Shown: piece after piece, positions 7,889 through 39,400 of the stretch | Numbering within the stretch: the stretch's first letter is position 1 | How the letters are laid out: each line of letters begins with the position of its first letter | NCBI GenBank assembly: GCA_951406725.2 | Contig: OX597816.1 | Coordinates: 77,190,001-77,254,000 of the forward strand | From: Octopus vulgaris | Lineage: Eukaryota | DNA length: 64,000 nucleotides | Direction: 5' to 3' | Made by a program: the position numbers and the translations under genes | Notes under the pieces: generated by a model | What the model saw: only the letters and a program-made list of their open reading frames with translations | Database searches by the model: none | What the model was told of the DNA's origin: nothing

Positions 7889-8027
7889 TTAAGTAAAATC
7901 TCTGTTTCTCAGTATAATTGGTGCAACCAAGGTCCACACATATAAAGCCAGAGCAAGCCAACAGGAGATAATTTTCACCCACATTGATGCAAGGTTGGAA
8001 TTTAAGGTTTTCAAATCTGAGCTTGGT
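7889..8027 (-). CDS. SERINC: SERINC exon 12 (terminal coding exon)
   Basis: tttctatttgtag|A CCA AGC...; [45 protein letters not shown]; TAA at 7889-7891. Confidence 0.95.
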
Positions 8028-10742
8028 CTACAAATAGAAACAAAAGAAACAGAGGAAAGAAAATTATAACAGTGTCTATAGTTTTAAGAACACGAAAATG
8101 AAAACTGACAATGAAACACCTCTTTCCTTTTTTCAGTCTGGGATGCATATAGTTACTATATGTAATTGTATTATGTAACATAATAGAGCTACAGAATACC
8201 ACAAAAATTATATAATATGGATGAACACACACACATATATATATATATCATCATCATTTGACGTTGGTTGTCCATACTAGCATGGGTTTGACCAGAGCTG
8301 GCAGGCTTCACAAGACTCCAGTCTGATTTGGTATGGTTTCTATAGTGGGATGCCCTTCCTAAAGCCAGCCACTCAGAGTGTAATGAGTGCTTTTACATGC
8401 CACAAGTATGGGTGCCATTTGTGTGACACCAGTATCTGCTATAACTGTGATTCTGCTCAGCTTAGTGGGTCTTCTTCTCAAGCAAGACATAATGCCAAAG
8501 GTCTCGGTCATTACCTTCATGGAGTCAAACACCTGAAAGGAGCTCAATCACTTTGCCTCCATGAGGCCTAATGCTCAAAAGGTGCACTTTATGTGCCACT
8601 GGCATGAGTGCCAGTAAACGTGACACCAGCATCAGCCATGACTAAGATTTCACTTGGCTTGACGGGTCCTCTCAAGCACAGCACATCGCCAAAGGTCTTA
8701 GTCACTAGTCATTGCTTCAAAGATCATGCTTCACCACCTCATCCCATATCTTCCTGGTGCTACCTCTACCACAAATTCCCTCCACAGAGATCAGCACTCC
8801 TTTACACAGCTGTCCTCGTCCATACGCATCACATTTTTCATTTAGCTGATTTCATGTGAAGAAGTGTTAGTGACAACTTCAAGTACACACACATTACACT
8901 TTCCAGCCATCAATTCTATTCACAAGGCACTGATTGAGTGAAGTCAAAAGAAGACACTTGCCCAGGATGTTGCAGACTAAAACTGTACCTCACACACAAA
9001 CAGAAACAATTACACACAGAAACACACACACACGTGTGTATGTATGTATGTAAAGGCACATGGCTACGTGGTTAGAGTGTTAGGCTTACAATTGTGACAT
9101 AGTTAGTTCGATTCACATTGCTCCAGTTTACTCAGCTATAGAAATGAGTTGCAATATGACTGGTGCCAAGCTGTATCAGTCTTTGCCTTTCCCTTGGATA
9201 ACATGCTGGTATGCATGGGTGACTGCTGGTCATAAAATCCCTGTCAAAACAAACACAGTAGCCTAGGGTAGTTTTTCTACCTGGCCAGCACCTGTCAATC
9301 AACCTACTCATGCAAGCATGGAAGATGGACGTTTAGCTATATATATATATATATATATATATAGCTAAACCATGTTAGAGTTGTTATTACCTTTTCACTT
9401 TTATTCCTCCAATGATGTTGTACGGTAGGGGATGTTTTTAATGATTTGGATATTTACAAATACATTGGGCTGAATGTTCTTCCTGTTGCTAACACTCAGC
9501 CAAAATACAGGTGGCCTTATGAAGTTATGTACCTTGTCTAAGTAAACAGCATCTACCTAGCTTACATAATAAGAAAGAAGAAGCAAAGTGGCTGCGGTAA
9601 GGTTTTGAACTGGCAACCAATGTAATCAGTTGTCAATCTGGAATGTTTAAACAGTGGTGGCAGGTGTGTTTCTAATTAATTAATTAATGAAATTATCAAA
9701 GAGCATACTAACCTAAACCAGTTGGTGAGAGTCATCATGACATAGAGGGAGGCTAGGCAGAACATGAAGTGAAAGAAAGAGTAGCTGTAAGCAACCTCTT
9801 CATCCTCGTTGTCCCAGACATTCTGTCCACTTTTTCCAGTTTCACCATCTTCAGATTTAGTGGAACCTAAAGGAAATAAAAGATAAATTGTTAAAAACAT
9901 GGTAGAAAAGAAAAGCAGCTCACACCACCTGGTTATTGCCTTGGTACAAAATGAAACAAAAAAAAAGAAAAGTCATTATCAATTTGCATTACATTGACAT
10001 TAAAAATCAAATTATCCACTTCCTTATTAGCTTCAGATTACAACCGAGACTGTTTACATTTTACAAATTGTTGCCATTTCAACCAAACACTGCAACATTT
10101 CAATTTTTCGTACCACAAAATACCAGTCTGCAACATAATTGCATTTTTAAGAGTTTTATTTATTTTTTTTTTATAGATAATTTTTATTTTAAGTTTTGTA
10201 AATTCCATCTCCCACTAACAAAAAAAAAGGTAATAAAAAGTTTCAAATTTTACACAGTGTAATTTAATGTCCCATTGGTTGACTGGTGACAACAAATTCC
10301 TAATAAGGCTTATTCAGAAATACAATAGCTACAAACGTTATTCTTAGGTCAAAGAAAGAATTTAAATCTATTCAAAGAATTAGGTTATTTCGCAAGTGAT
10401 TTAGAAACGTCATTATCTTTTAAAATTTATTTCTTCAAAATTACAGAATTACAATGTTCATTCATAGTTGATTTGAGAAATCAATATCTTTCTGTGATTA
10501 AACAAGTAAGGAATTATAGAATTTCAAAATAGTAACACTGGGTTCAATGTTATTATTGACAACTCAATAGTAACATTGAGTCCAAGGGAAATAATTGTAG
10601 TGATAATTATTACTTTTTATTTGTATTTTTAAATCTAAAAACAAAAAATATGAAAAGAGAAACTAGTAAAAAGAAAACCTGGGAGCAGTGCAGTTTATAG
10701 AAAAGTTTAAACGTGTAGTAAGGGGTGTGTAAAAAGAATAAT

Positions 10743-10784
<42 letters not shown>

Positions 10785-13700: not shown

Positions 13701-15957
13701 GGTAGGGCACATGCATTTCAATGCTGCTGTTAGAATAAGCTCGTACATTTTGGGGTACTGATCACAATGATCTGAAGGGTCAGAAGGTCAAATGGGCTGA
13801 GTGATACAAGTGTAAGACTGAACAACAACAAAAACAATATCTAACATAAGTAAATGGTCACACATTTTAGGTAGGGTAGAGTAGAGTTAAATAAATTGAT
13901 TCCCAGTACTTGAGTAGTACTTTATTTTATTGACTCCTGAAGTTAAAAAACAGATAAAGTCAAACTCAATAACATTTGAATTAGTGATGTAAATGGAAGT
14001 AACTATCACAAACCATTTCCTTTGGCACTCTACCAAACCAAGAATACATAAAGTTGTCAAATACAATTCTTAGCGGGAGGATTTTTTTCACTATATTCAA
14101 TGTAATGACAATCTCATCGTTTTCTAAATAATTTTCTGACTTAACAACAAACCTACTAGTACCTAAAAAAGAACTAACGTTTTTAAAGTTCATGTTTGTC
14201 TCAACTGTACAAGAAGCCTAAATGAAATGGAACGTCTTTACTCGGGAAGCCCAACAGATTCAGTTTGCCAGGAGCTTCTCATTCTATGGATATTGCATAC
14301 AGTCTATTTCTACAGTTACAGAAGTGTTCATATCAAAGCTGTCTCCCTAACTGGTTTGTATTGATTAGGATAACTTTAACTAACATGACTGTTGCTCAAA
14401 ATGTTACTATGTGGCACCCACATTTCTTATAATCTTTAAAGATGTTTTAAGCTCTTGATTTAGAGAAAACAATGGCCAGTTAGGAATGCTACAATTCCTC
14501 ACAAATCTCAGAACCAAAACATAACTGATTAGGGCTACACATCATAATCAAGATCTTATCCTGGGTCCTTCAACATCCTTGAAGCTGTACAAGAACACTC
14601 AAGATTTTTTTTTATTTTGAGACCTAGCAGAATCCATCCATCTCCAAGTCTAAACAAACAGTGAATTTCTTCTAGAAAACAGAACAATTGATGGACAGAA
14701 AGTGATAAGAGAAGAACCAACCACAATACAGGACTAGTACTTTGTCAGCTCTAAAAGGATAAAGGACAAAGTTGACCCCAGAAAGATTTGAACTCAGAGC
14801 ATAGAGAGCCAAAATGATTACTGCAAAGTAATCTCCTCAATGCACTAATGATTCTGACAATTGGTTGCATTGTCACTAACAATAATTAATAGTAGAGAGA
14901 GAGAAAAAACAACAGTTAAAATAATAGAAAGGTATTTTACACAGCTCATCTTAGTTGCTGTAACTGATATTTCCCAGATCTTCCTACAGCAGAACCAAAC
15001 TGACAAGAAACTGAAGCTTTAGTTCATTCAACTGCTGTCATATACTTTATCAGGGTCTTCATTAAATACTTTGTTATTAAGGTGAAACACCTAAATCTAT
15101 TTTCTTTTAATGATGAAATATAATTTCTTGGCAAAATGTCTTGTGGGTAGTGTTCTCAAACTTAGATCTTGAATAAATAATTACAATAGATCACAAGTTT
15201 ATCTATTATTCCTTATCAAAACCCAATCATACACTTGACACCACTCAGTGGCCAATATGACCAACTGTACATCAGATGCTGTCATCAAGTACATGACCAT
15301 TACCTCCATAAAAAGAATTTCCAAGTTTTTCTGTAAATATTAAGAACACCAGAATATGAAGCGTATTAAGATGATATAGATAGAAGATTAAAAGAAAGAA
15401 AAACAAAACAAAACAAAAACAGAACCAAAACAATAAAAGAAATGAAAGGAGGAAAAACTGTGTTAGTGTCAATAATAAAATGAAAACAGAAAATTAAAAA
15501 AAAATAAAGACAGCAGTTGATGAGTACAACATGATATCCATTTTGATATAATATCACAAATACAAGAGCAACAATCGAACTGTTGTAAGAACTGTGCAAG
15601 CAAAAAGCAATAAGAAGTGCAGCTGACATACCAGTGTCATTTAGAAGTATGGCCTCTGTGGCTACAAGGGCAGCAGGTAAGAAAGAGAAATCTCACAGTT
15701 AAACATCCAGACAATAAAGGACAGATTGTTGCGCATTGTGCCAATGCACATCAAACTCTCCAGGCATCACCAATCATATTAGATCTAGCATTGTCCTGGG
15801 GACATGGGGGGCACACACACACATATACATACATATATATGTATAAATACACATACATACATATGTATGTATACATAACTATGCATTCACATGTACACAC
15901 ATGTACATACATTTATACATGTGTACATATACATATACATACAGATATTTACATGTG

Positions 15958-16006
<49 letters not shown>

Positions 16007-19000
16007 TACATATGTGTATGTGCGTGCACGTGTGTGTGTGTGTTTGTGTAGCCACTGGTGAATCCTAGTATTACATATGTATATGATAGCATTGCCATCA
16101 GAACTAATCAAAGATGTAGCACTGCACAGATATAGCTCTTAGCTTGCTCCTTGTAATATTTCGCAATCATGTCAATATACTCCGTATATATATATATATA
16201 TAACTCAGGACAATGCTAGAATTTGTTTTACAATAATAATAATAATAATTATTAATATAATAATAATAATAATGGCCAATCTCTGACAAGCTTTCTGCAA
16301 AGTAATATAAATGATTAGTATCATGTCAGATATAATGTTAACAGTCATCAAACGCTTACCTGAAGATATGTGTAGATGTGTTATGCTTTAGAATCAGACC
16401 TTCATTTTTAGTTTCATTACTGACATTTTCTACTGAATATTTTAATTAACTAAACTTAGCAAGCTAATGAAATTCTAATTTAGTGGTAACTTCTACAGGT
16501 GTTTCTTACAGGAGTGGAATATATAATGTAGGCTAAAAGTCTGACAATGAATACATGCCTGCTACACTGGGAGACATGCAACATCCAAATAGGGAAGTCA
16601 TATATGTTTGGTTTATTAAATATAATATTTCTACACCTTTACAAACAAGTTCAGTAGAGTTAAGATGTTGTGTGTAATTACTGTTATTAAAATACTAGAA
16701 ATAAAGTAGAATGCATAAACTGAAAGCCAGAATTGAGAAACTGAAGAATCAAGAAGAGAAGATGATGAGGGAGGTCACATGAAAAAATGTAAAATGATGA
16801 GTCTGCAAAGCAACTAGCTTTAAACAGATTTTGAAAGTATATGAAAATTCTCAGATAAATGAAATGTATAAATACTATTTTGTGTGAGATGTGTAGTGGA
16901 GGGCAAAAGAGATTCTTCAATTATGCAGCAAAAATCTCTCAGAAAATCATACTGGTGACATGATGAAATGTATCCAGTCCGTAACATAAAGTGGTTGATG
17001 CTAGGAGGGCTATGAAGCTTTAACAAAACCAAATAAATATAACAGCAAAGATTGGCACTTTCCTCTGTTGGTGGTGTATTTGCCAGATGAAGAAGAAGCA
17101 TAACAAGAAGCAAAAGTAGTAAGAAAAATGAGTGTGTTGGAGACAACCCTAACAATGTCAGCCCCCATCCACAACAATGACAAGAAGTAAAATACTGAGT
17201 AACCTGTCCAACTCATTTCCGAATGTATAAGTTAAAATTAAATGTAAACTGGTGATAATAATTATCTATAGATAGGAAAAGTGAGCTTTGGGAAATAAAC
17301 CAAAAAAGTTCATGGCATGAATTTAAATTATTTAGATAAGTGGGTAATGATGTACTGAATGATATTCAAACAATAAAAATTCTTAATGAATTGAAATTAG
17401 CTTTGTAGCAGGAAAAACATACACCTAGTGGTAATTGTTAGCAATTTCAAAAATATTAAAAACTAATTTCACAAAAAATTTCATTTATTATTCTTAGAAG
17501 GAGAAAGCTCAACTCTGTTAGTAAAGACTTCGACCATATTAATCTTATCATCTCCAAGAGGTTGCAAAGGTCATGAATACTGCACCTTACTCCTAACAAA
17601 ACCATATAACAAATTAAAGCAGTCTTGGGAAGCAGAGTCTTTTCTAGTAAGAGGAAAAAAACAAGTGGAGATGTTACAGTATTAATATCAATAGGGACTA
17701 AACTGGTGGTCAATGCAGAAACTGGGGATAGACAAGTGGTTGGTAAAAGTTGTACAGGGATGCTGTCAGTAAGGTGAGGGTTAGCAATGAAGTAGGGGTT
17801 CACCAAGGATCAGTCCTCAGCCCCCTCTTATTCATTATAGTCCTCCAGGCAATAACAGAGGAATTCAAGACAGGCTGCCCCTGGGAGCTCCTCTATGCTG
17901 ATGACCCTGCTCTAATAGCTGAGTCACTGCCAGAACTAGAGACGAAGTTTAGGGTGTGGAAGCAAGGTCTACAATCGAAGGACCTTAGGGTTAACCTGGC
18001 AAAAACCAAAGTCTTAGTAAGTAGGAAGGTTGACAAATCACAAATCCCTTCAGGTAGATGGCCCTGCTCGATCTGTAGAAAAAGCATGGGCAGACACTCC
18101 ATACTATGTACCCAGTGTAAGCTATAGACGCATCAAAGGTGCAGCATGAAAGGAAGGTTAACCAGGAAGATAGTTTTTGTATGTGGCAGATGCACAGGGA
18201 CAATAAACATTGAGGATGTACAGAAAACAGATTCCATCACATGCCAGATGAAAACTAGAAGCAGTTAATAGCTTCCACTATCTAGGCAACCAAGTCTGTA
18301 TTGGGGGTAGTTGCTCTGAGAGTGTAGCAGCTAGAATAAGAATAGTCCGGGCAAAATTCACAGAGCTCCTACCTCTGCTGGCAACTAAGGGCCTCTCAAC
18401 TAAGGTGGTGAAGCCTGACCTTCGAACATTGGGCCTCACAGAGGCAATGACAGAAGACTGAGACCTTTGGAGATATGCTGTGATTGAGAAGACCCAGCAA
18501 CTAAAGTGAGGTTGCAGCCATGGCCGATAACAGTGTTGCATGTCCAGCCCATTTAAGAGTACCCTTGATGCATCGGGCGATATGATATGCTTGAGATCTG
18601 TTGAAGACAGTAAAACCAAAATCGTAGCTGTGGCCAGTGCCCGACTGGTTCTCATGCCAGTGGCATGCAAAAAGCACCATCTGAACATGATTGATGCCAG
18701 GCCCATCTGACTGGCTCATAAAAAGCACCCACTACACTCTCAGAGTGGTTGGTGTTAGGAAGGGCATCCAGCTGTAGAAACATTTGCCAGATCAGATTGG
18801 AGCCGCTGGCTCTCCAGACTTCAGTCAAACTGTCCAACTCATGCCAGCATGGAAAATGGACATTAAACAATGATGATGAATGTAAACAGATCAATGTGGT
18901 AACTATTCTAAATGTAATTTAGTATTCAAGAGATATGCCATTATCAAATATGAGGAAACTGCTCGTTTGTGACTGATTTGATTAGGACAAAGAGAGAGAG

Positions 19001-22000
19001 AGAGGAGACATCTCTACATTGGAGGTTATCCATAAGATTTAGAAATGTAAAATGAATTTTCTACTTACAAAAGCCCTTTTATGTTACTTATCAGTGAATG
19101 ATCAATAAGTGATGCAGTAAAGGTCCATTTTGATAGAACCACTGACATAATTAATGAACAACAGTTTAATATGAAAGACAACAAGAAATGGATATTTGTA
19201 CTACCTGAACATAAGGGAACAGATCTTTGAGATATTAATAAATCAAAGAGGCAGGATCAGTGCCCATGGATTTTTGTTGGCCCCACCTGACTATTGAAAT
19301 CAATGGTGTTCACTTACAACTTTTGTAGGTCAACATCTGCAGGAGAAAAGTGGACTAGGGGTGGAGGGCAGAGGTCCACAGGTCAGTGATATAATGCTTA
19401 AGCAAGTATTTAACATAAGATCTTCAAGGCATTGAGGCATATCAAGGACAAGAAATGATGGGTGCATCAGGTAAGTTTTCATGGCTGTGGTATTAGTATA
19501 AGCTTAGATTAACGAGAGAGAGGTCATTGTAGCCATAGCAGAAAATGCAGAGAGAAAAGATAGCGTATTTGTGAGAAAGCCATTGTAGAGCATTGCTGAT
19601 TTTGGCAACCTGCAAAATGGTGTTCTTTCGGATGCAATTTAGGATATTTGAAAATCTGGTAGCAGTTACAGATAAGATATATGAAAATATTCTTATGCGG
19701 GTTGCATCTAACATTTACAGTACAACTGATCAGAGTTGAAAAAGAAATCTAGTCTTCAATATATTGAGTTCCATTACATCTTGTGAAGTCATCCCAAAAA
19801 TTGACTGAGCTTGTGAGGTCTAGCACTTATAGAAATTGAGTGATTTAGCTGTGTGTTGAAATATGAGGAAAATGTGATAGAAATTTGGTGCTGTTGATGA
19901 GAGTAGGTGTGTCATGGCATCATTGATAAATGCTTTCAGGTGCTTTGCCCATGGCAGCTGTGCTGATTGACAAATGAAAGGTAGGTCATTGACATAATTG
20001 AGTGAGGTGCCAGAGTTTATAGAGTTTATTAGAGTGAATAGCTGTTGAGACAAACACAGTGCAGCCAGAGGTCAAGTTTTGGATCCAGGCAAATAGTTTA
20101 GAATTAAGACTATATGAAGGAAGTTTGATAAAGAAAAGAAATCCATCATGATAACAATTGAAACAGAAGTTTCCAAAGAGAGTTACTAAGATACCCAAAA
20201 ACAAGTTCAATATCTCATATAACCAGAAAACTCCAGCAAATTAAAATTAATTGAAAGTAAGCGACCAATAACTCAAATTTGAAATGGTAATTTATAAAAT
20301 TAGTAAAAATTTTTAATAAATTATGTATAAAAACAAAAAATACATACAAAATTAAATCAAATCAAATACAGAAAATTAAATTATTGGTGCAGTAATGAGT
20401 GTTCAAACACAAAAGAAACAGAAAGATGTATTAGAAAGCATTATTCCTATAACTTCTAATTAGAAATGGAGATATATGCTGAATGATTTCATCAGAAAAG
20501 CAGAAAAAAAATGAAACTTAGGCATGCAGTATTAACATGAATCAAAAATCTTGTATAAATTACTTTGTAAAGAAAGACTAAATTTCAAATTTTCTAATTG
20601 AAGTAAAACATAAACATTTGAAAAGATTTAAGTAACTTTAATGCTTTGTTTTATACAAATGTTAGACAATCAAACACAAAATATCCAATTCTAATTTCCT
20701 ACACTAGCTTGTACCAACATCTCCCCCCCCACACACACACACACACTCTCTCAGCCTCTCTTGCTAGCGATTCTTCATTAGTCATTCTTCAACAACTACA
20801 CTGAAATCCATGCAAAGGACAGTTGTATAAATACTTACTGTAATAATTAAAATAATATTACTTATTGACCAGTATAATTTTTTTTTCTTCATCAAATAAT
20901 TATTTCTCAATAAATCTTTAATGCCCACTACATTAAATATGTTAACACTATCTTAAAACATTCAGTGACTATCATGAATTTAGATTACTTAGATTCTGTG
21001 AAGATATTCAAACACTTTTTTACTTTTTATTTTTCTTATGTTTGTTTTCTGCTGTTCCTATCTTTTTCCTTCTGAAAACCTATTACCAATTTAAACAAGA
21101 GAACTGTACACACGCAAATTTCAACGACAATAAACCTATCAAATAAATGCCTACGTCCACAATATCCAATTTTCTATGATGGAAATTAAGAACAGAAGGG
21201 AATGAAAAAATTGAACAAAGAAAATTATCAATGCCAGGCCCACCTGACTGGCTCCTGTGCTGGTGGCATGTAAAAAGCACCCACTACATACTCAGAGTGG
21301 TTGGCGCTAGGAAGGGCATCCAGCAGTAGGAACATTGCCAGATCAGAATGGAGCCTCGTGCAGCCACTGGCTCTCCAGACCTCAATCAAACCATCCAACC
21401 CATGCTAGCATGGAAAATGGACATATGATGATGATAATAAAAATTGTATTTCTTTTCGTTTCTAGCTGGAGAAAAAAAAAATCGACTTTTGAAAAAGATA
21501 TCAATATTATTCTTTCAAAAGAAACCTCTCCAAATTTCACCTCAAAATTACTACAATACTCTATACACATTCTACCTCAAACAGGTATATATAACGACCC
21601 GTCTCTTAACCTGCACACAGCAACCTATCTCTATATACACTAACCTGCATCTTGGGTTCTAGCACTGTGCTGCAATCCCAGCAAAAGGTAATCCTGTCTT
21701 ACTTAATTGTCCCACAATGAAGGGTACACTCACTATTGTATGCTGTACAAGGCACTATATATTTGACAAATGTTTCATGGAGCTTAACTCATCACTAGGT
21801 ATGACAGCAACGAAATGTCACATAGTAGTACCTGGTTAATATCTCTCTCAGTTTAAAAAAAAATCAAAAATAGGATTGTGTACGATGTATATTTCCTTTT
21901 GCACCTTACCTCCTCTGGTAGAATGCTCCACTGAGTAGTTGTGCATAAGTATTATACATTTTGATTTTTACTTTGAGAGGTAAAGTGAATGTTGTCATTC

Positions 22001-25000
22001 GAAATAAAATTAAGAACTAAATGTTTTCTTTTTGCAAAAGTCTACAGCGATTCCCCACCTCCACTCTTGATTCAATATCATTAAATTGGAAATTGTTCAT
22101 TAATTAAAAAAACTTACAGACAGAAATAGACCACAATGCTAAGGAAAAGAGAGGAATTTGATACTGAAACTTACATAGGAGCATGTTATAAATGGGTAAC
22201 CAAAATGCATGTTATACATGTATTTTGGTTACCCATTGTGAATCATTGCATTTCTCACAGCAAGAGTAAAAGGGAGTGCCAGTAACTTGACACAGAACAA
22301 ATATTGCAAAGGACTTCATTCAAAGAGCCCATTTTGGAAGTTTTTTTCACATCAGTGAAAGATACATCAATGTAATTCCACACAGTTTTTGTCTATGAAA
22401 GCTCATTCATTAAAGTATTGGTTTTTTACCTAGTGTTACAGTAAAATATACTTGCTGTCCATAGAGCCACACCGTGGGATCAAACCCAGAGCCCCAGAGT
22501 TAGGAAGCAAGCTGTTGAACCAGACAATCGTCATAAGTCCCCACTCACCCTTTTAATGGCTCATTCAGAAGAGGAAAGACAACACAACTAACACTTTTTC
22601 AATGATGAGAAAAAGATAAGAAGCCATGTTCCAACTTGGCCTGAATCCGAACAACAGAGTAATTCTCTGCTGAAGGCGGTGATGTTAAAGTAAGTGATGG
22701 TTTAAATATCAGAATTTAATTACATCAATACTCTGCATAATCTAACCTCTGAGAGATATAGCACCAGCATAATTCTTCTCCATAGATTTTTTTTTACAGT
22801 TTGTTTATCATTCATCACATTCAATGAGAACTTCTATCAACATCAAGTGAATCTAAATTATGTTTTGAATGCAGAGACTGCTGCAAGCTTGGAACATTCT
22901 TCAGTAGTGTAAATCAAGATGACTAGCACCACACAAGAATATTTTTGTTAGTAACAGATTTCTGTTTTCATTGTTCGGCTGCTACTAAACCTTTGTCAAG
23001 AAACGACAGCACAATATCTATCAAGATTGACATCAAAAACTTACAACAAAATCTTCAAGAAGTCCTAAGAACATCTACTCAAATAGCATCTCACCTTATA
23101 ATGTCCGTACAAGCAGAGTTGTTTCCCTTGCAATCATTTCCGCCAATAACAATAAAAGAGAACGAGTAACTATTGTCACGAACCAAATGGAAAAAATATT
23201 TACTTGAAGGGAATACTTGAGGTTGAAGGGAAATTGTGGAAGAGGTAGACCTGGGATGAGGTGGTGAAGCATGACCTTCGGAAATATGCTGTGCTTGAGA
23301 AGACCCAGTAAGCTAAGTGAGACCATAACCCATGGCCAGTGCCAGTGGTGTAACCAGCCCACTTAGGCGTATCTTTCTTTCATTGGATACTAAACTGCTT
23401 ACAAAGACCTGTTGAGGGAAGTGAAATCGAAATCAAATTTGATGACAGCACCACATGAATGGCATCCATGCTAGTGGAGCGCTAAGAGCACCATCCGAGT
23501 GTGATCGTTGCAAGGACCACTGACTGGGCCCCGTGCCAGTGGCACGTAAAAGGCACCATTCAAACGTAATCGTTACCAGCGTTGTCTTACTGGCACTTAT
23601 GTCGGTGGTATGTAGAAAACAACATTAGAGCGAGGGCGTTGCCAGTGCTGCTGGACTGGCTCCTGTGCAGGTGATAAGTAAAAACAGCATTTGAGCGTGG
23701 CCGTTACCAGTACTGGCTGGCCCTCGCGACGGTGGCACGTAAAAGCACCCACTACACTCTTGGAGTGGTTGACGTTAGGAAGGGCATCCAGCTGTAGAAA
23801 CTCTGCCAGATCAGATTGGAGCCTGGTGCAGCCATCAGGCCCACCAGTCCCCAGTCAAACCGTCCAACCCTTGCCAGCATGGAAAGCAGACGTTAAACGA
23901 TGATGATGATGAACTAAAACCAAAAATCTTTCTCATCTTGAAAACTGTACAAGATGTCAAAAAACTAATTGTATATTTGAAATCAGCATTAAAACTACAC
24001 TAAGTATACCTTGATATATGCTTGATGAAAAATACTTGTTGACCAGTGTTATTAAAACAAACATCGACATTTCCACAAAACAACTATAGATGAAACAATA
24101 TCACATTTTTAGATAGTATTTTGAAGCATGAGCATTCTATCTGAATTCTTAGGTTTCTCATAAAGTAATTAATGGAACAACAATATAATCTAAATAATGA
24201 CAGAAAGTAGATGAGATACGTCACTACTGCTTAGAGTTCACAAAATGTTGCCAAGAGAAAGAAGTTTCCTTTTCTTCACAGCAAAATAATTTATTTTACT
24301 TAACAATCTCTACATAATTTATTATTGGCCAATACTGAAAAATCATTAGTTTCTCTGGATTCTGTAGTTTCACTAGTTACACAGAGTTATGATAAAATCT
24401 CAGAAATAGCCACACAGTTTTAATAAGACCCCAATACTGTATTAATAAGACATCCCCCACCTGATATTAAGTATATACAGTTGTGATGACATCCCACAAC
24501 AAACAACATAGCTGAAGATATGATAGATAAGATGTAGCTGTGATAAGAAAACAGAACTAGTTACTATTTAAGTAATAGCTACACCTAGTTGTGATTAAAA
24601 AGAAAAACAAAACTACTGAGTTGAGTACAAAAACCCAGCTTGAATCCTTGCTGAAAACCATTACACATCACTTAGGATTTTTGCCTACAAGTCTAATCAA
24701 ACTTTAAAGCTTAAATAAGTATAAACTCTGCAAAGGTACCTGGAGAAAAAGGATTGTGTGAAAGTTCAAAATACTACTGTAATTACAGAAGATTGTCATA
24801 CATCTAACTAATTCCAAAGACTCTTAGAATTTTAGTAATTAATTTTTATGAAATATCTATGCCAAATAAATGCATAAATCTTACCTGTATCCAACTGCAG
24901 AATAGTTCTCTCTGACATGGTAATCTTACCCATTTGACTGTTACTTGAAGTACGAATACTGAAAGAGAAATTAAGATTACATTTTACCATCATAATAATC

Positions 25001-28000
25001 AATATCTGTAACTATTAATTCAATTTAAACCTAATGTCAGCTAAATAATCTCACAAAAATAAAGGAGCTTATCCCTCAATATTGCCATTAAAACTAATTA
25101 TCTTCCCATCACCCTCTTAAAACAATTCATTTCCCATTACCCTATTTGCTTTTATTGTTCTTTTTATATTACATTATTTTGTTGTTATTTTACATCCATT
25201 TATCCATGTTAGCTTTTTCAAATTTAGATATTTGCATTGTACTAAAAAGTAATCATCATCATCATCATGAAGCAGACATACTTCTCTGACTAGAGATATC
25301 ACAAAATGTGTACAATTAAAACTGAACTCTTGCTCAACACTAGTCAAGCATCTCACATTATCCCATTGTAACAGGAAATAAGTCCAAGAACATTATATCA
25401 CACATATTTGATTGTAAAGAACATAACTCATGATTTTAATGAAGACAATATTTTAGGAAACTAAAATTTAAATTTTCCTTAAATCTCCAAGACATCATTA
25501 AGGATTTATATTCAGCTATAACTGCATTCAGTTGGGACAGGTATCTGTTTATTCCAAGCGAAGCTGACAAGTTTATAAAAAAGTAAGGGATGTGAAACAT
25601 AGAGATTAAAATTTGCAGACAAAACAAACATGAAATAATGAGAGGAGAAAATTAAATGTCACCTTGAATAGAGAACTGCAAAAAGCCACAGAAGCAAAGC
25701 AATAATACTCTGCCAATCGAATATACCCAGTTTCGCAAAGTCTCCTTTTTCATTGGGACATTTCTCTTGTGGATTGCAGACACAATCTATAAAAGAAACA
25801 AATCAAGATGAGCAATAAAATACATGACTTAACAGAAAATATTCAAAGTTATTCCTGAAGCTATTTGAAAAGAGGGAATACAAATAATCCATGGAGGAAT
25901 ACAAACAGTTCATTAATTTGTAGCATGTAATAAAAAGATTCTATTATCTAACCAACAGAATTCAGGTTGAAATATCTAAAAGGAACTATGCAAATCTTAC
26001 ATATATACACACAACTAGTAATGTTAAAACATTTCTTTGCATACATGACATTAACTTTTTGAATTATGAAGGTACTGCTGAAAGATTTTATACTCAAGGA
26101 AGGATACATTGATGTTTCTTTCCTGTTTCAACAGTGCAAGCTAACAAAATACTTGCCAGTTATAGAGTATACTTAGTTGCTTACAAAAGTGAACAGTGTA
26201 CCTCCTCATAATATATTATTTATAGCTAAGTTGGTGAGACCATCTACAGTTAAAGCAGACAGAGAAAATTTCAACTATCAATAGCACTTAATCAGAGTTT
26301 TATAATAAATATTAGTATTTCTTCCCAAATCATGACCAAAACTAAAAATATTGTACAATATACAACTTGCCTTCTTAAGTAGACAAGATATGGCCCAAAT
26401 TTAGTCAATATAAGCAAAACTAGATTTCTTTCTATTTAGGTAGCATCATATTAGCTATTATATGCATCCATTACTAAATTTCTTTATTTTGGTTTCTTAT
26501 AACAAGTCACATGAAAAAATCTTTAATTCTGCAGTAACCTACTCAGCAATACATTATCTTACTAAGGCTAGAATCAAGTAGAATATGATGGAATTGTGTC
26601 TTTAATAATTTAACAAAAGAGCTATCAGTTACAACAGATAAATTATCATCATTTAACATCTGTTTTTCCATACTGGCATTTGTTGGACATTTTGACAAGC
26701 TGGAGAACTGCACCAGGCTCCAGTCATCTGTTCTGGCATGATTTCTATGGCTGGATGCTCTTCTTAATATCAAACACTTTACTGAGTGTACTGGATGCTT
26801 TTTTACATGACAAATTATATTTTACAATATAGTTGTGTACAATCATATTTAACACGTTTGTGCATACTCAGGCATCGACAGACAATACTCTGCACAAATA
26901 GTATCAAGAGATGAAATTCTCCTTATAGACAATATGGGTCTAAAGATATTTTCAAATACTTATATATTAATTTCAAACTAACTGAATACTCACAACCACA
27001 CCGTGAAAGATTAAATAACACACAAAGCCCTTAAATTCACTTTAATGAGGTGTCAGACATTTTGTCACACAACCGCAATCTAGTCATAGACAGTTCTGCT
27101 GCAAGTCTGTTACAGTAGATCTATGTGAGTGAGTTGCATCTCTGAGTTAGTCACTTGCTAGACAAGTACTACCCTGAAATAACTGAATACAGTAATCCCT
27201 TGCCATATCACAGTTCACCTATCGCGCACACAGTACACTGCAAATTTTTCTGACTAATATATGTAAGATTATATCGCAGACTCCTCAGTATATCGTGGGT
27301 TTCTGTGGCCAACAGGTATTTATATCTACTTAGATTTTAATAATTTCTGTGGGAGGTTTCGGAATGTAATACTCGCGATAGTGGAGGGATTGCTGTACTA
27401 TTACTTCCTTAATGTATAAAACAGTATTTAAAAACATTGAACATAGTTTTTTTTTAATGTTTACAGCCAAAATATTAAAAATGAAAACAGTCAGTTTCGA
27501 ATTGGCTAAAGCAGACTTATGTCAGATATATGTATAACATTTAAATGAGAAGGACTATAAGATAGTATAAATAAATATCCACGTCAGTTTCAGCGACTGT
27601 AATTGATAAAATATCTAAGGGAGTTCATTCATTTTTGACGATCAAGAATATATTTCAATGAAAATTTTTCTCCTCCAAATGTATAAAATTACATTACAAA
27701 TACAGAATAAAAACACAGGTTAAATAGTTCAAGTAGAAAAAAAATTACATATAAGTTAAATGTTTATATTTACAAGGAAGTTTTATTAAATGGTTATCTA
27801 CTAGGTGTCATTATTCTATATCCAAAGGCTGGCAGAATTGTTAGAGCATTGGAAAAAAAAGTGCTGTGTAGTATTTCTTTCAATTCATAACCTTCTGAGT
27901 TCAAATTCCATCAAAGTTGACTTTACCTTTCAGAGTCAATAAAATAAATGCCTGAACAATGGAGTTGATATAATTTACTATCCTCCCTCTCCTAAATTTG

Positions 28001-31000
28001 TTGGCCTTGTGTCAAAATTTGAAACCATTATTCAAATATCCAGACTGTACAAGAATGACTTCAATAGCTGAACCTTTCAGGCAAGAAGACAAAAGACGGA
28101 GACATTTGGCACCTGGCCATACTCAAGAAGACCAGTACCCCACAACAGAAGTGTTAAGACTGATCCTTCAGGTGGTGTAAAGCACTCATGGTGGTGCCAT
28201 GTAAAAGCGCCCATTAAATGCACCCAGCACATTCTGTAAAATGGTTGGCATTAGAAAGAGTATACTGATTAAGAAACCATGCCAAATCAGATTGGAGTCT
28301 GGTGCAGCTCCACAGCTTTGGTCACACCATCCAACCCATGCCAGCATGGACAAGTGATGTTAAATGATGATGGGATAGTCACACTGCATCCCTGCATGTC
28401 TCTCAGCCAAGAGACATTAATATATGAAACAACAATGTTACATTGTACATATTTCAATGGTATATAACAGATTTGCCCAAACAAAGCTAACTGTGACTAC
28501 AAAACAACTTCTAACTTGAATAAATTCATAAAAAAATTGGCCACAATTGAGTTAATCAACTTAGTATCTAAAGGTAGTCATTTCATAAATTATAAAGCAA
28601 TGAAAGGGAAAGTCAATATATTCAAAATTTAATTTAGAATATTAAGGGCTAAAAGACCAAATATTCTACCATTTCTGCCACATTAACACTCTAGTAACAA
28701 GAAAGATAGATAGAACCTTTACATGGTTGCTCAGCCAGCTAGAAATAGCAGCAAGCTTCTTTCAAATTGTACACTAGTACAGCCAGCTATCACTCAAAAG
28801 TAAATTTAGCTTGGTATCATGTACCATCATCATCATCATCATCATCATCGTTTAACGTCCGCTTTCCATGCTAGCATGGGTTGGACGGTTCAACTGGGGT
28901 CTGGGAAGCCCGAAGGCTGCACCAGGCCAGTCAGATGTGGCAGTGTTTCTACAGCTGGATGCCCTTCCTAACGCCAACCACTCCGAGAGTGTAGTGGGTG
29001 ATTTTATGTGCCACCGACACAAGTGCCAGACGAGGCTGGCAGACGGCCACACTCGGATGGTGTTTTTTATGTGCCACCGACACAGGTGCCAGACGAGGCT
29101 GGCAGACGGCCACGCTCGGATGGTGTTTTCTTATGTGTCACCGACACAGGTGCCAGACGAGGCTGGCGGACGGCCACGCTCGGATGGTGTTTGTTACGTG
29201 CCCTCAGCACGGAGGCCAGTCATTGCGGTACTGGCTACGGTCACGTTCGGATGGTTTTCTTATGTGCCACCGGCACTGGTACCACAAGGATACAAATTCC
29301 ATTGATGTTCATCTATTTTGATTTGGTTCGATTTGATTTGATACGATTCGATTCTCACTTGCCTCAACAGGTCTTCACAAGTGTCACAAGAAGGAAGGTA
29401 TGCACAGGTGGACTGACTACGTCCCAGGTAGGGGCCACGGATTATGGCTTCACCATAATTTTGCTAATTGTTTTAATTTTATAATCATGAGCCATCTTTT
29501 AAAAAACAGACATGTTAGACACTCCATATATATCTGGAGGGAAATGGATGGTCATAGCCATAATGTCTTTGGTTATATCTTACTTAATCCCTTCACTCCC
29601 TGTGGAACATAGATCACTGACGATTTTTCTCCACTGTTCTCAACACTGTGCTGTTCAGTTTTGAATTGTCGTCCATGCTTCTGTAACTTTGCTTTTTTTC
29701 TAGATAGGGGTGTTGGCCCTACACAAACTCATTTTTATTTCTGGGAAGAGGAGGCTCATATTAATCTAGTATCTATCCATTGTCCTGTCCAGCATGGAAG
29801 GCTGCAACATGAACTGGGCCTTGTTCTTCAGGTTAGATCTAAAATAAACTAGACCTATATAATCAAACTACTAAAAGCTAACAACAATAATCAAAATAAA
29901 TAAATCTGTCTATATTATAGAAGACCACAAATTTGTGGGGAACCAAAATAGTTGGTTGAATGAGTAAATTATGAACAAGAAAACTGAAAGGTAAGTTTAC
30001 CTGGATTGTTGGTCATGGCAGACCAAGTCAAATACATGCAGTAAAACGTGATGACTGATGCCTGAAGGAGACCAGATCTTGGTTGGACTGAAAATAATTG
30101 AGAAAGTATTAGCAATGTAGAATTTTAATGGAAGGTCTTTATCAAGTAATATATATTGTAACGAAAATAGAAACAAAGTGTAACATTTATAGATAAATAC
30201 TTTTTTAAACTTTAATATATAAAGTTAGTGCTCTCCTGAACAGCTTTTAACTAAGCTAGCTGAAACAAACTACAGAATATAGTTATGTACCAAAGCATGA
30301 TTTGAAGCAGAGAGTTGTATATGTGTGAATGAATGACAAGAGTATATTATGAGGGGTTGCTGAAAAATTCTCGGAATTGCAAAAGGGCTGGTTGGAGGCC
30401 CAACCTTTCAAGTTCTTTTACAGGGTTTATAAAAACTGAAGGACCACTGCAATAAGTATGTGAATGTGTGTGGGGAATATGTTGAATAAAATCATAATTA
30501 ACTGATCCTCTTCTATTTGCTTTTACCCAAAGCTAGGAACTTTTCAGCACCCCACCCCCTCATATATGTATGTCTATGTGTTTGTGTGTATACACATGCT
30601 TATGTACACACACAGAGGTATGGCACAAGAAGTTTTCTTCCCAACCATATCATTTCAGACTCAATCTCACTGCATGGCACCTTAGGCAAGTGTCTTCTAC
30701 TATAGCCCCAGACTGACCAAAGCCTGGTGAGTGGATTTCGTAAACAGTGTCCTCTCTTGATATGCACTGGCTATAAATGAATGTCACTATCACACAAGTG
30801 ATATCACCCACTTTTATACAAGGGTTATACAACTTTGCTTCAAAATAGACAAGAGTCGGCAATAGGAAGGACGGAAAAGTGGATATTAAAACAACAATAA
30901 TGATGGTACACAAACATATTCTTTCATTCTTTTAATCATTGAAGTCAATACCAATATTCTAAATTATGAAAATCAGAAGCAAGAGGTATTTCAGAATGCA

Positions 31001-33490: not shown

Positions 33491-36400
33491 ATGTGTGTGT
33501 ATATATACACATATACATATACACAGATTGCAACAAATGGCAAGATACTCCATTGGAATAGATCCATCCAACCCATACAGTATGGAAAATCCAGATACAA
33601 AATGAAGATTATACTACATGCACTAGTAGCAAGTACCCAGTATTACCTAGATTCATAAATTACATAAGAAATATTTTAATCTCTCACCACCTGAAATCTA
33701 ATCCAATAAGAGCTGTATAGTGTGTTAAGAAATATTTCACAAAAAACTGAATGTTGAAAAAGCAAACTGATAAAAAAATAAACAGTAAAAATCAAGAAAT
33801 TGAGATGATGAACAGGTGAAAAGATTATTAAAAATATGAATATCACAGTCATCATCATCATCATCACTAATATTTTACATTTGTTTCATCTTATTGTATG
33901 GATTGGGCAGTATATCAAAAATAAATACGAGTGCATCTAATTCTGCCAGTCCATATGAAGTATGGAAATTGATATTAAAAATAGATAAAATATGAAATAT
34001 GATAACTAAAACAGATAAAATACGAAATATTATATTTCATAAAATAGATAAAATATGTTTCACTGTGTAATACAATCGATGTCTTAACTCAGCTTAGTTG
34101 TTTTCAGTTGTACTTACACACACAGACAGTTTCAAATGTAGAGCCACATTTAAAATACTTAGATTAAGACAAGCTATTTTAAATGCTTGGTGTCAAGATA
34201 CATTCAGAAACAAAATTTCAGCTATGGATGTTCAACTAGTGGAAACAAGACATAGATAGATGCTATTTCATTTCTAAGATAAAATAAGTTTTTTAATTCC
34301 ATCAGAATTTTTCTTTTATCCTTCTGTTTATCTATGAGAATCTTATTGAATCATCAATTGATACATAAGCAGTCTGATTGATAACAGAATAGCACTGAAT
34401 CTGACAAGATCCAACTAGAATAAAATTACAAAACTTCATATCTTCTATATTCAGATTTAACTCAAATATTCTCTGGTTCATTTTATGCCTGTTATTCTGT
34501 GCTAGCATGGGTTACATGAATGTTATAGAAGCACTATTTCATAGGCAGATGCCCTTCCTGATGCTAACGTTTACTTGTTTTTCCAGCATGGGGATCTCTT
34601 ATTCCAGACAGCTTCAAAAGCACAAAGCAGGCTGGCAATCCATTACAAAAGGAGAAATGCCAAGAGAACACCACACATGTTGTGATTTTTTTTAATAAGT
34701 GAGTGGCAAATATAAACAAACATACACACACAAAAGGCTACAATAGAAAGCATGTGCCACAAATTGGACAAGTGTTTTCCACCATAGACTCAGGTGAGTG
34801 AAATAAAGTAAACAGAAACTGTGTAGAAGATCATCAGTTGGACTGAAGTATCTCATCATTCATCATCCATAATCTAAATGGTACCTGTAACTCAAAGAAC
34901 CAGGTTTGTCACATACTGTGCTATGTAGATTCTTCCTAAGGAGTAGAAACAATGTACAAATGTCCGAGGGATACTCAGCCACACACACACACAATATTTT
35001 AATGTGTTGGCAGTACTAACCATTGAAACTTGAATATACATATGTACATTGAAGTATATATTTAGCATGAGCATTCCAGTTTTAAAATAGGTACAGCATA
35101 TACATGCATGTCATAAGAGGTACCTAATAGGGTTGACAACATGTAGGGCATCCACTGCCTCAAAAAAACCCTCCAACCCAGTGGGCATTACATGATGATG
35201 ATAAATATTTGAGTGTGCGTGTCTGTAAAAAAGTATTCAACCATGAATTCCCCTAATTAATTTAGAATGTCCTCCCCATGTATGACAGACCACAGACACT
35301 TGGTAGCATCAACCAGTATATTAATGTTTTTTTTTTAAATACATATTGCAATTCTTATCAATTCTCCTTCATATCAACTTCTTAGATTAGCTTCAATTAC
35401 TCATATAGCTTGAAGTAGCAGCTCTAAGTTTCTTCTGCAACCTCAAACAGTAGCTCTCGACTATCCTTGTTTTATATTATTCATACAATCCACTATCTGA
35501 TTAAGTTGTCCCAATTTGTTTTTCTCATTTGTTGATATTCATTTTGTATCACAACTGAAGATTCTTCAATCTCAGCTGTGACACAAAGCAAATTATCAAC
35601 AAGAGAAAACAAATCAGGGCAATTTAAAAGCACAATACAATTACTGGCATATACAGCTGGATGAAGAGAATTCTAAACTGGGTACAATGAATACTGTTTT
35701 AATTTCATTAACAGCAAAGACAAAGATCTCCATTATGAAACTGTTCAGGTATGTTTTGTTTTATAATGAAAAATGTGATGATCCTTAGTTCCACATGAAT
35801 TTTAATATGTGAGTTAACTTGATTTTAACACAGATGATGATGATGATGACAACGAAGGTAAAAAAGATGAAGAGACCAACCTTCTTGCACTTTTGGTAAG
35901 ACAGAAATAATGGACACAATAATGCAAAGAATCAAATTGAAGCTGATAAAGAATTTATGAGCAACACATTCTGAATCCTGGAGGGAGAAACAAAAACACA
36001 AACATTATTTTACTAATAAAACCAAAAAGATAAAATGTAATAGTTCAGAGTATATCAATAGTAATACTTTTTCATATTTAAAAGAAAATGGTCAAGAAAA
36101 CCTTTATTTCATAGTGTAACTTGATAGAAGCACTTCAAGACTTAGTGAGTCGAGCCCCAAAATGCTACTGAATTCCTTTTGAGTTACACTGTTTGTAAAT
36201 TTAAGTTTACCCAACTGTTAAGATCATCATTTGTTTTTAGCCTTTAAACTGGTCCAAATTCAAGAAGATTGTTTCCAAAATACTTTACATATACTTACTG
36301 ATTAGAGAAAAGACAGTACACATGGACCCAGAAGAGTGTCAAACTAGAGAAACCATCCCAAAAATGGAACATACAAGACACAACTACACATGGTCCCAAC

Positions 36401-39400
36401 ACATCTAAGAGGGTAGAATTTCTAAATAAATTACTTGAATCATAACCCACACCAGCATAAAAGTAATGATGACAATATAAGACATATGTGCATGTATGTG
36501 TGTGCGTATATAGCATGACCTTCGAACATTGGGCCTTACCAAGGCAATGACTAGTGACTGGGACCTTTGGAGATATGCTGTGCTTGAGAAGACCCAACAA
36601 GCCAAGTGAGACCATAGCCCATTTATGAATACTCCTCATTCAATGGACAATAAATCTTGCTTGTGAAGACCTATTGAGGTAAGTGAAATCAAAATCGCTG
36701 ACGTGGCCCATGATAGTACCGCCTGATTGGCACTCATGCCAGTGGAACATTAGAAGCACATCCGAACATGGGATGTAACCAGCCCACTTATGAGTACCCC
36801 TCATTAATTGGACAATGAACTTTGCTTGCAAAGACCTATTGAGGCAAGTGTAAACAAATCAAAATCACTGACGTGGTCAATGATAGTACCGCCTGATTGG
36901 CACTCTTGCCAGTGGAACGTTAAAAGCACATCCAAGCATGATCATTGCTAGGGCCATGGATTGGCTCCTGTGCCGGTTACATGTGAAAAGCACCATTTGA
37001 GCGTGATCATTGCCAGCATTGCTTTACCGGGACAGGTGCTGGTGGCATGTGAAAAACAACATTCAAGCGTGGTTGTTGCCAGTGCTGCCGGACTGGCTCC
37101 TATGCAGGTAGCACATGAAAACACCTTTTGAGTGTGGTCGTTGCCAGAACCACTGACTGGCCCTCGTGCTACTGGCACGTAAAAGCACCTACTACATTCT
37201 TGGCATTAGGAAGGGCATCCAGCTGTAGAAACTTTGCCAGATCAGATTGAACCTGGTGCAGCCTCTGGCTCACCAGTCTTCAGTCAAACTGTCCAACCCA
37301 TACCAGCATGGAAAGCGGATGTAAAACGATGATGATGACATAAACACTGCATCAACCAGTCTACTGAGTGTTGTTATCCACAACTGGTCACAATGTGTTT
37401 CCTCAAATTGTCATAGCTTTCAAATGATGTCACCCCACTGGCTTGGCAAACAGGCACACTATATATATCTAAATAAATAAATAAATATATATATATATAT
37501 ATATCATCATATATAATATTACCTAAAAAGCTATAACTGATGGGTCAAGAGTTTCATCCAAATTCATTTAACAAACTGAATAAAATGAAGACATCAAAGT
37601 TATACACACCAAAAAAAGAAATTCAAATATTCTGGATCCATCTCAAAAATACCATTTCAGTCATATAACTAACTGAGCTGTCCTCAGTAGGATTTGAACT
37701 CACAGTAATGAGAGTCAGAACAAATATCATAAGGCATTCTACCCACCACTCTAAAGATTCTTCCAATTCACTAATTGACCAAATCATTATCAACTAATTA
37801 ACTGAATCATTGTTGCACCATATCAACTAATTAACAGAATCATTATCAACCAATTAATTGAATCATTGTTGCACTATATCAACTAATTAACTGAATTGTT
37901 AAAGTGAACTCATTTCACTAACTATAGATCAATCTGTGCTATTTTCCTTTTTATAAATTTCATATAAAATAATTTACTGACCGCAGCATAGAAGATGTAG
38001 AAGAGTACCACAGCCGCAAGGGAGAGTACGTAAAAGAGTGCAGTAAAGAACAACAATCCTGTAATAAAGACAGAGGAAAACATGAGAAACAGTATATAGT
38101 AATGTACTGTGATTAAATATGAATCAATTAAGAAATTTACAGTAGATCATTAAAACATATACTGGCATTTCAGTCAATTACTTTTAAATCTTAAGACAAG
38201 AATGCTGGTTAGCTTAAAAGGAAAAATTCTAAAAGGAAACTGAATTTGATAAATTACAAATAATTAACAATAGATGTGATGGTGATAATGATAATAATGA
38301 CAACAACAGTAATAATGGTTTCAAATTTTGGCACAAGGCCAGCAGTTTTATGGGGAGGGTATTAGTTAATCCCATCAACCCCAGTACTTGACTGGTACTT
38401 TATTTTATAAACCCAATTTGATTAAAATAAAAAAGCAATGTTGATCACAGTAGTGTCTGAACTCAGAACATAAAGAGCCAGAGGAAATAAAACAAAATAT
38501 TTTTCTTGACACTAACAGTTCTAGCAATCAACCAAGAGATTTCTAATAAATAAAAATCAGCTTAATTAAAAAAGTGATTATCTTTTCTCAAGATTTCACA
38601 TATTTGTTAATCCAGCCAGTAAACAATTTTGTGATTCTTCTTTGCGCTACTTTGGCAAATAAAGTAATGTCTATGCTGTGCTGATGAGGTCATAATAACA
38701 CTGAATCATGTCCAAAGTTCTACCAAAACAAAATAGCCACCATTTATTATTGTTTTCCCTGCATCACTGCATATTTATTTTGAGTTAGCTTTTCAATGCC
38801 CCATACATTAAATATGTTAATATTACTGTTTCATGAATATATTTCTGAGATCATGAAATTTTAGAGTTATTTTTTTTGGTTTTTTTAGGGAGGTCATATC
38901 ACTACCATTACCATCACCCAGTAAAAGATTTTATTTTGGAAACTCCACAGCAAGGTATCTATCTCTGTCCCTCTATACCTTTAATCTCTCATCAGCTGGC
39001 ACAAAGCCACCCCACCTCAATACTGTTCCCCACCTCCCAGCTGAGGGGATTTTGTCTAGTAAGTTACTTGGTGATCTTGTCAGTGCTCATGTCTCGTAAA
39101 AAGCACTGGTACTGGTGTCACATAAGAAGTACTGGTGCTGGTGACACATAAGAGACATCCAATACACTCTGTAAAGTGGGTAGTGTTAGGAAGGGCATCC
39201 AAATATAGAAATCATGCCAAAACAGACAATGGAACCTAGTGTAGCTCCCAGCCAGCTCTTGTCATGCTGTCCAATTCATGCCAGCATGGAAAATGGACAT
39301 TAAATGATGATGATGAAGTGAGACTGAAACTTAAGTTTACTTGGAGAAAAGGTTAGCAAAAAACAAATACATTTGAGAACTAATAATTTAATCCTTTAAC

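Follow-up and report, generated by a model that had tools for sequence, protein, structure and literature searches.

What SERINC proteins normally do in the cell is poorly understood; in SERINC5, HIV-1 Nef targets intracellular loop 4 (ICL4), the cytoplasmic loop between transmembrane helices 8 and 9 (TM8 and TM9). The subject here is the same loop in a SERINC gene of Octopus vulgaris, contained in a 64,000-nucleotide (nt) stretch of contig OX597816.1 (positions 77,190,001 to 77,254,000, referred to as the window), and two small alternative exons, E and F, that lengthen it. In human SERINC3, an acidic cluster in the homologous loop (also called loop 10) binds the mu1 and mu2 subunits of the adaptor protein (AP) complexes after phosphorylation by CK2 (10.1101/286633); in the same assay, the SERINC5 loop did not bind mu2 (10.1101/590646). 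SERINC1 and SERINC3 have been described as cargo of AP-4 (PMC6160451). Human SERINC3 flips lipids in proteoliposomes, and upon deletion of its ICL4, helix 8 becomes ordered and the helical bundles rotate, from which the authors infer allosteric communication (PMC10359404). The second described system comprises the neural microexons regulated by SRRM3 and SRRM4, proteins with the enhancer of microexons (eMIC) domain (PMC8797185, 10.1101/2024.09.17.613571); octopus exons E and F are likewise short, keep the reading frame, and lie in a cytoplasmic loop. No small optional exon at this point of ICL4 was reported for vertebrates in the literature searched, and for SERINC the mouse exons tabulated in PMC8797185 are limited to one of 69 nt in Serinc2 and one of 168 nt in Serinc5. 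The fly exon tables of PMC8797185 have no row for TMS1/CG4672, and the Caenorhabditis elegans supplements of PMC7706725 gave no match to the SERINC gene names tried, one file excepted.

Twelve minus-strand coding exons running from 61248 to 7889, joined at GT/AG ends, reproduce exactly the protein P0121, which is an O. vulgaris / O. sinensis isoform by its database name. The product with exon E included (P0001) matches the Pfam family Serinc (PF03348) along the whole profile (1-434 of 434, E value 1.5e-165), the solved structures 7RU6 and 6SP2 are homologous (E values of 1.3e-118 and 3.5e-105), and the gene is SERINC1/3-like. Intron 10 (24884-9867, phase 1) is 15,018 nt long, compared with 546 to 5,793 nt for introns 2 to 9 and 11, as the original prediction made from this DNA had noted; intron 1, at 17,245 nt, is longer than intron 10. 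That prediction proposed that intron 10 hides six microexons, A to F, which diversify the loop into as many as 64 variants. Its core, alternatively spliced small exons within intron 10 that are placed in the TM8-TM9 loop, is borne out for E and F. These two exons form an alternative module at an insertion site that is conserved among protostomes, where leucine and tyrosine types recur. The features concerned are as follows.

24885..24958, minus strand: SERINC exon 10, encoding the first half of ICL4; RNA shows its donor spliced to exon 11 or to E, and database models show it spliced to F.

15632..15661, minus strand: exon E, 30 nt, adding 10 residues of an acidic plus Leu-Leu type; X2 junctions and database proteins.

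15331..15631, minus strand: intron between E and F, 301 nt, sometimes retained; protein P0123 and an X2 contig.

15304..15330, minus strand: exon F, 27 nt, adding EKLGNSFYG, a Tyr type; X2 joint of F to exon 11 and database proteins.

9713..9866, minus strand: SERINC exon 11, with a Ser/Thr-acidic cluster at its start, followed by TM9; RNA, exon join, and alignment.

RNA was read as assembled contigs without tissue labels from five of the 24 listed runs (X2, X3, X10, and X12 over positions 9650-15800; X1, X2, X3, and X10 over 16300-25000), with splice joints showing spliced RNA. The joint table for 9650-15800 has three rows, two of them spliced and both from X2, joining E to exon 11 at a depth of 301.5 and F to exon 11 at a depth of 7.2, compared with 1007 for the exon 11 contig. 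Loose ends of X2 also show exon 10 running straight into E and, separately, straight into exon 11. Exon E is therefore an alternative cassette exon, with its inclusion and skipping junctions all present in X2. For exon F, the joint to exon 11 and skipping are seen directly in RNA and the upstream junction is provided by the database models P0122, P0125, and P0126; F is most probably a real alternative microexon. X3, X10, and X12 have exon 10 alone before exon 11, and the same junction is found in X1; the contigs of X1, X10, and X12 are unbroken across it for at least 255 letters. Judged by the X2 depths, E is present in a sizeable minority of molecules of that one run, and none was seen in X3, X10, or X12, on contigs whose depths are rough and from which rare forms are dropped. 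Because the evidence covers E and F only, it amounts to about four loop forms (none, E, F, and E plus F) in place of the 64 envisaged. In X2, the contig carrying the joint of F to exon 11 is 384 nt long and runs from inside E into the intervening intron; we infer that it retains those 301 nt. In P0123, which retains the same intron, the open frame continues past E through 88 further residues, mostly hydrophobic, that replace TM9-10; such retention could reflect slow splicing or a truncated isoform.

Database proteins carry the same two exons. Among all eight models of the Octopus cluster (O. vulgaris, O. sinensis, and O. bimaculoides), two have neither exon, two have E, two have F, one has both, and one has E with the retained intron; E is found in P0001, P0123, P0126, and P0127 and F in P0122, P0125, and P0126. 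The corresponding records of O. sinensis (XP_029634468-70), O. bimaculoides (XP_014777282-4, serine incorporator 1 X1/X2/X3), and O. vulgaris (CAI9719501-5) are the same gene in E, F, E plus F, and skipped forms; they are automatic models without stated regulation or function, and none has units A to D. In the cluster that holds a Sepia pharaonis protein, labeled cuttlefish-like by similarity, all 15 proteins were read; five of them carry E with 9 of its 10 residues identical and one substitution, and F is found in none of the 15. Both exons are missing from the only Argonauta model. The O. vulgaris model with both exons, P0126, leaves exon 12 early and continues into a long, different C terminus (residues 442-569), for which tblastn found no place in the window and which is possibly an annotation artifact or a downstream exon. 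A two-residue Asp-Lys insert before the E position in the cuttlefish-like proteins P0133-P0135 was considered as a further optional segment and rejected, being present in all three proteins of that sequence type; it would reflect either a constitutive microexon of 6 nt or an extended exon 10, and a 6-nt unit matching it was not found in octopus intron 10.

When the octopus protein is aligned with solved structures, the segment from the end of exon 10 through E and F to the beginning of exon 11 falls in a stretch that is absent from the human SERINC3 ICL4-deletion structure 7RUG, which is without the part matching query positions 347-392. Both small exons keep the frame, and the residues they add immediately precede the Ser/Thr-acidic cluster of ICL4. 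The human SERINC3 segment SGASDEED, from the cluster that binds mu subunits (10.1101/286633), aligns to the first residues of exon 11, where oysters read GASDSGDEE, and the octopus counterpart is by this alignment a putative binding cluster. SERINC5 had been invoked as the trafficking precedent; the phosphoserine acidic cluster of SERINC3 is a better fit to a SERINC1/3-like gene. The end of exon 10 (ERTILQLDT, 24885-24911) and exon E (TEAILLNDT, 15632-15661) have equally spaced I-L and D-T pairs, and the human SERINC3 segment DSVILGDT aligns to exon E; E may repeat a constitutive exon-10 motif.

The insertion point is used well beyond cephalopods. Members of 30 clusters were read, with large clusters listed in part (15 of 80, 15 of 37, and also 15 of 23 members), and the choice of multi-member or isoform-labeled matches biases the set toward genes with inserts. 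Among these proteins and further database matches, both an insert-free and an insert-bearing protein were found in 26 protostome groups (18 molluscan, 2 nemertean, and 6 arthropod), and all of their optional inserts, of 3 to 18 residues, sit immediately behind the exon-10 segment. A Leu-based hydrophobic pair is gained in 23 of the 26 groups (octopus EAILL, oyster DAPLV, snail DENLI, shrimp DIPLV, and ant EQSLI, for example) and a Tyr in 17 (such as oyster DKYG, scallop DYQ, Aplysia DTYK, and ant DYTT), while the insert-free loops contain no Tyr in 764 residues. As the groups are related, these counts measure conservation and are not independent trials. The Leu type precedes the Tyr type in octopus, two oysters, scallop, Mya, Lineus, and an ant. 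Three inserts occur at this point in many molluscs, so a third octopus exon stays possible. Outside the 26 groups are those without an insert pair (Haliotis, Argonauta, Lottia, and Lingula) and two echinoderms. Starfish and brittle-star SERINCs (P0015, P0185, P0187, and P0188) have optional Tyr-bearing inserts of 9 to 18 residues slightly earlier in ICL4, one of which forms a YxxPhi motif; these look like inserts of independent origin.

The two exons differ in their splicing signals. The E acceptor is eMIC-like in having two UGC and two UCUC/CUCU elements, along with UUAAC at -41 and an AG-free zone of 28 nt.

15670..15675, minus strand: tandem UGC UGC at -14 and -11 of the E acceptor.

The F acceptor has an AG-free zone of 125 nt (15457-15333), a length reached by 3 of the 199 pyrimidine-preceded YAGs of intron 10, and CUAAC at 15466-15462 (-136). 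These features of E and F match the fly eMIC code as given in PMC8797185, and UGC is found at 74 to 79% of SRRM3/4 microexons and is described as not strictly required (10.1101/2024.09.17.613571). An exon at G000:C25:37317492-37317626 of the same genome matches the SRRM_C domain (PF15230) at 32.6 bits against a cut-off of 27 and, as one exon, is a candidate for the eMIC exon of an octopus Srrm2/3/4 gene. Inclusion of E varies among the runs (one of four). Regulation by an eMIC factor is plausible for E and partly so for F. The strict cut-off for microexons is 27 nt. Compared with SRRM3/4 microexons, E at 30 nt is above that length and F is without a nearby UGC.

Recognized sorting signals provide the yardstick for what the inserts might do. 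DxxLL is the signal read by GGA proteins. AP complexes recognize ExxxL-Phi and YxxPhi as defined in 10.1101/286633. E-type inserts resemble the leucine signals in placing Leu and a hydrophobic residue after an acidic one, and F-type inserts give a Tyr; the acidic residue is, however, usually no more than three positions before the Leu and not four, octopus has Glu and not Asp at the position that DxxLL would require, and most Tyr inserts do not fit YxxPhi. The sequences of octopus E and F rule out reading them as canonical dileucine, DxxLL, or YxxPhi signals.

We lean toward E and F being a splicing switch that acts on sorting of SERINC by vesicle-coat adaptors. An E-type acidic and Leu-hydrophobic peptide would add or strengthen an adaptor contact beside the phospho-acidic cluster, and the F-type Tyr would be a phosphorylation site or a partial tyrosine signal that tunes the same contact, so that the two exons together could adjust adaptor binding and with it the location of SERINC. 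Inclusion would be tissue regulated, for E probably by an Srrm/eMIC factor. Several observations count against such a switch. A canonical [DE]xxxL[LI] arises from the inserts of no group among the 26 (in octopus E, position -4 is Thr and position -3 is Glu), [DE]xxL[LIVM] fits in only 11, and YxxPhi arises in two (Lineus and Linepithema), octopus F giving Y-G-G-S; on these counts, a sorting motif would be noncanonical. No UGC lies within 30 nt of the F acceptor, and F was not seen outside Octopus among the 24 cephalopod proteins. The order is reversed in Aplysia, where the Tyr insert precedes the Leu insert, and no insert is present in Haliotis (four full-length proteins from four species) or in single-protein clusters such as Argonauta. 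Homology across phyla is based on protein alignment and not on intron positions, and a single run of the four supplies the joints of E and F, from assembled contigs with rough depths. The role of the acidic residue could be taken by a Thr or Ser at -4 once phosphorylated. A broader proposal is doubtful, namely, that neuron-enriched acidic-Leu and Tyr exons before the phospho-acidic cluster are a module ancestral to protostomes, which would reroute SERINC, as a putative scramblase, between membranes by means of a noncanonical [DE]xxL-Phi motif, with entry into axonal AP-3/AP-4 carriers or removal from the cell surface as possible outcomes, and with the echinoderm Tyr insert arising independently.

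An unlikely alternative to adaptor sorting is that E and F are real and tune either the phosphorylation of SERINC or its activity, lipid scrambling through the coupling of ICL4 to helix 8. In many Tyr inserts the Tyr comes right after an acidic residue, a common feature of kinase sites, the canonical sorting motifs are not matched by the inserts, and the ordering of helix 8 and rotation of the bundles upon ICL4 deletion in human SERINC3 (PMC10359404) fit this alternative as well. A spacer would not be expected to hold a Leu-hydrophobic pair in 23 of 26 groups with inserts that range from 4 to 18 residues, a pattern with the look of a short linear motif, and the pair adjoins a known adaptor-binding cluster. 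It is very improbable that the exons are tolerated, nearly neutral length variation of a disordered loop: insert sequence and length do vary widely among groups, some lineages have none, and F is rare in the sole run that shows it, but E is 9/10 identical between octopus and the cuttlefish-like proteins, when exon 11 of the cuttlefish-like P0003 is at 88%, and the Leu-pair and Tyr types recur in three phyla.

The remaining alternatives concern the other four units, which were compared with chance.

22118..22138, minus strand: unit A, 21 nt, with good splice-like ends; rank 3 of 499, in 0 of 24 cephalopod proteins.

21910..21930, minus strand: unit B, 21 nt; rank 54 of 499, no sign of use.

21734..21742, minus strand: unit C, 9 nt, encoding A-Y-N; rank 60 of 499, UGC at -12, AG-free zone of only 10 nt.

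16953..17000, minus strand: unit D, 48 nt, a remnant of a dispersed repeat; stop variant, repeat match, rank 147 of 499.

All six units are found where they had been predicted, with AG/GT ends, lengths divisible by 3, and a joined frame free of stops, but intron 10 contains 499 symmetric, stop-free AG..GT units of 6 to 51 nt. Under a splice-site score trained on the 11 introns of the SERINC gene itself, a small training set that makes the score rough, E and F rank 12th and 17th. In the other ten introns (36,980 nt), units scoring as well occur per 15 kb 0.8 times for A, 3.2 for E, 4.5 for F, 23 for B, 34 for C, and 117 for D. By these ranks and this baseline, a splice-like look alone separates no unit from the background; E and F stand out through outside evidence and not through their splice sites, and A, B, C, and D do not stand out. 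UGC does lie near the acceptors of B (-15), C (-12), and E (-14/-11), as had been observed, but 52 of the 199 pyrimidine-preceded YAGs of intron 10 (26%) have a UGC within -20 to -3, so its presence in three of six units is unremarkable, and UGC was rejected as a mark of true microexons (P = 0.19). The six units had also been said to lie in nonrepetitive DNA, which agrees with a single match each for the A-C and E-F stretches, in a genome repeat search that passes over very common words, and does not agree with unit D, which has a second locus.

Unit D matches a sequence on contig C18 of the same genome (G000:C18) at 48 of 57 nt, a match that spans both of its ends, and the DNA just upstream of it matches C11. 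A variant at position 16984 turns its Cys codon into a stop in all three covering runs, which are from three studies (one contig each, with depths of 4.1 in X2, 7.9 in X3, and 6.5 in X10). On the in-frame stop and the repeat origin, D was rejected as a coding exon. Units A, B, C, and D are present in none of the 24 cephalopod proteins. No junction of A, B, or C is among the rows listed for the five RNA runs, assembled contigs dropping rare forms. At the places where a junction of B with exon 11 or with E would fall (9868 and 15663), every row listed is a single contig with exon-10 letters; a junction of A, C, or D would fall elsewhere, possibly among the 58 loose ends beyond those listed for 9650-15800. 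Over 16300-25000, where high-copy repeats swamp the table for X1, X2, X3, and X10, no A to D joint is among the 15 listed, which is not evidence of absence given 272 further joints. Sequence differences were considered as a measure of constraint around B and C (none over 508 nt in X2, compared with 6 over 972 nt near D) and set aside as too few. Units A to D are most likely chance AG..GT units, and A probably is; rare inclusion of A, B, or C is possible. Unit C is, from its size, position, and Tyr, the best remaining candidate for a third microexon, although unproven; its size and position are like those of the 9- to 12-nt upstream inserts of gastropods.

That one or more of A to C, most plausibly C, are real and rare or restricted to certain cell types, which would give up to eight or more loop forms, is improbable overall. 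Three inserts occur in clams, snails, and Lineus; Biomphalaria and Aplysia have an insert of 9 or 12 nt upstream of the Leu type, and Physella and Pomacea have inserts of 12 and 9 nt whose order relative to the Leu type is not shown. Unit C combines a Tyr with a UGC at -12 and has A-Y-N in common with an insert of Ruditapes, unit A has strong splice-like ends, and rare variants could be hidden by contig assembly or by the 1579 loose ends that accompany the further joints of 16300-25000. The cephalopod proteins nevertheless have none of these units, even though database models catch 9-nt inserts in Pomacea and Biomphalaria; E directly follows exon 10 in X2, the contigs of X1, X10, and X12 pass unbroken from exon 10 to exon 11, and the scores of B and C are at chance level. 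Little credence at all is left for six independent microexons with up to 64 neuron-specific loop variants. The six units exist, keep the frame, and are free of stops, and two of them are real; against the full array stand the stop variant and repeat origin of D, the absence of A to D from the cephalopod proteins amid 499 such units, and the occurrence of E and F together in only one of eight Octopus models.

As an octopus feature, E and F are ordinary, since they are already in database models. No paper was found on E and F or on the pattern across phyla; subscription papers, bioRxiv supplements, and splicing databases were beyond reach and may list them. The value of the locus is comparative, in that invertebrates provide natural isoform pairs differing by 4 to 18 residues at one point of a loop to which adaptors bind in human SERINC3. 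If the Leu and Tyr inserts change sorting, these isoforms would offer a direct test of where SERINC acts in neurons, and a noncanonical leucine motif may be defined.

The other coding exons of the SERINC1/3-like gene, placed by the 12-exon join, are listed below; a second SERINC-family gene is present in the same genome at G000:C8:82776428-82811886.

61216..61248, minus strand: coding exon 1.

43806..43970, minus strand: exon 2.

42504..42697, minus strand: exon 3.

40311..40390, minus strand: exon 4.

39627..39764, minus strand: exon 5.

37982..38058, minus strand: exon 6.

35881..35977, minus strand: exon 7.

30001..30087, minus strand: exon 8.

25663..25786, minus strand: exon 9, containing TM8 by alignment to human SERINC3.

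7889..8027, minus strand: exon 12, the last coding exon.

Two stop-free stretches that are alike in look, 31826-32857 (minus strand, 343 amino acids) and 2117-2734 (minus strand, 205 amino acids), resemble remnants of Penelope-like retroelements; the second has a weak GIY-YIG match that is below the cut-off (E value 7e-4), and the first has no Pfam match. The stop-free stretches 63389-63907 and 44456-44977 (both minus strand, about 170 amino acids) have no Pfam match and are probably remnants of mobile elements. Intronic contigs of X2 and X10 carry a 22-nt insertion relative to the window at position 11758, a polymorphism.

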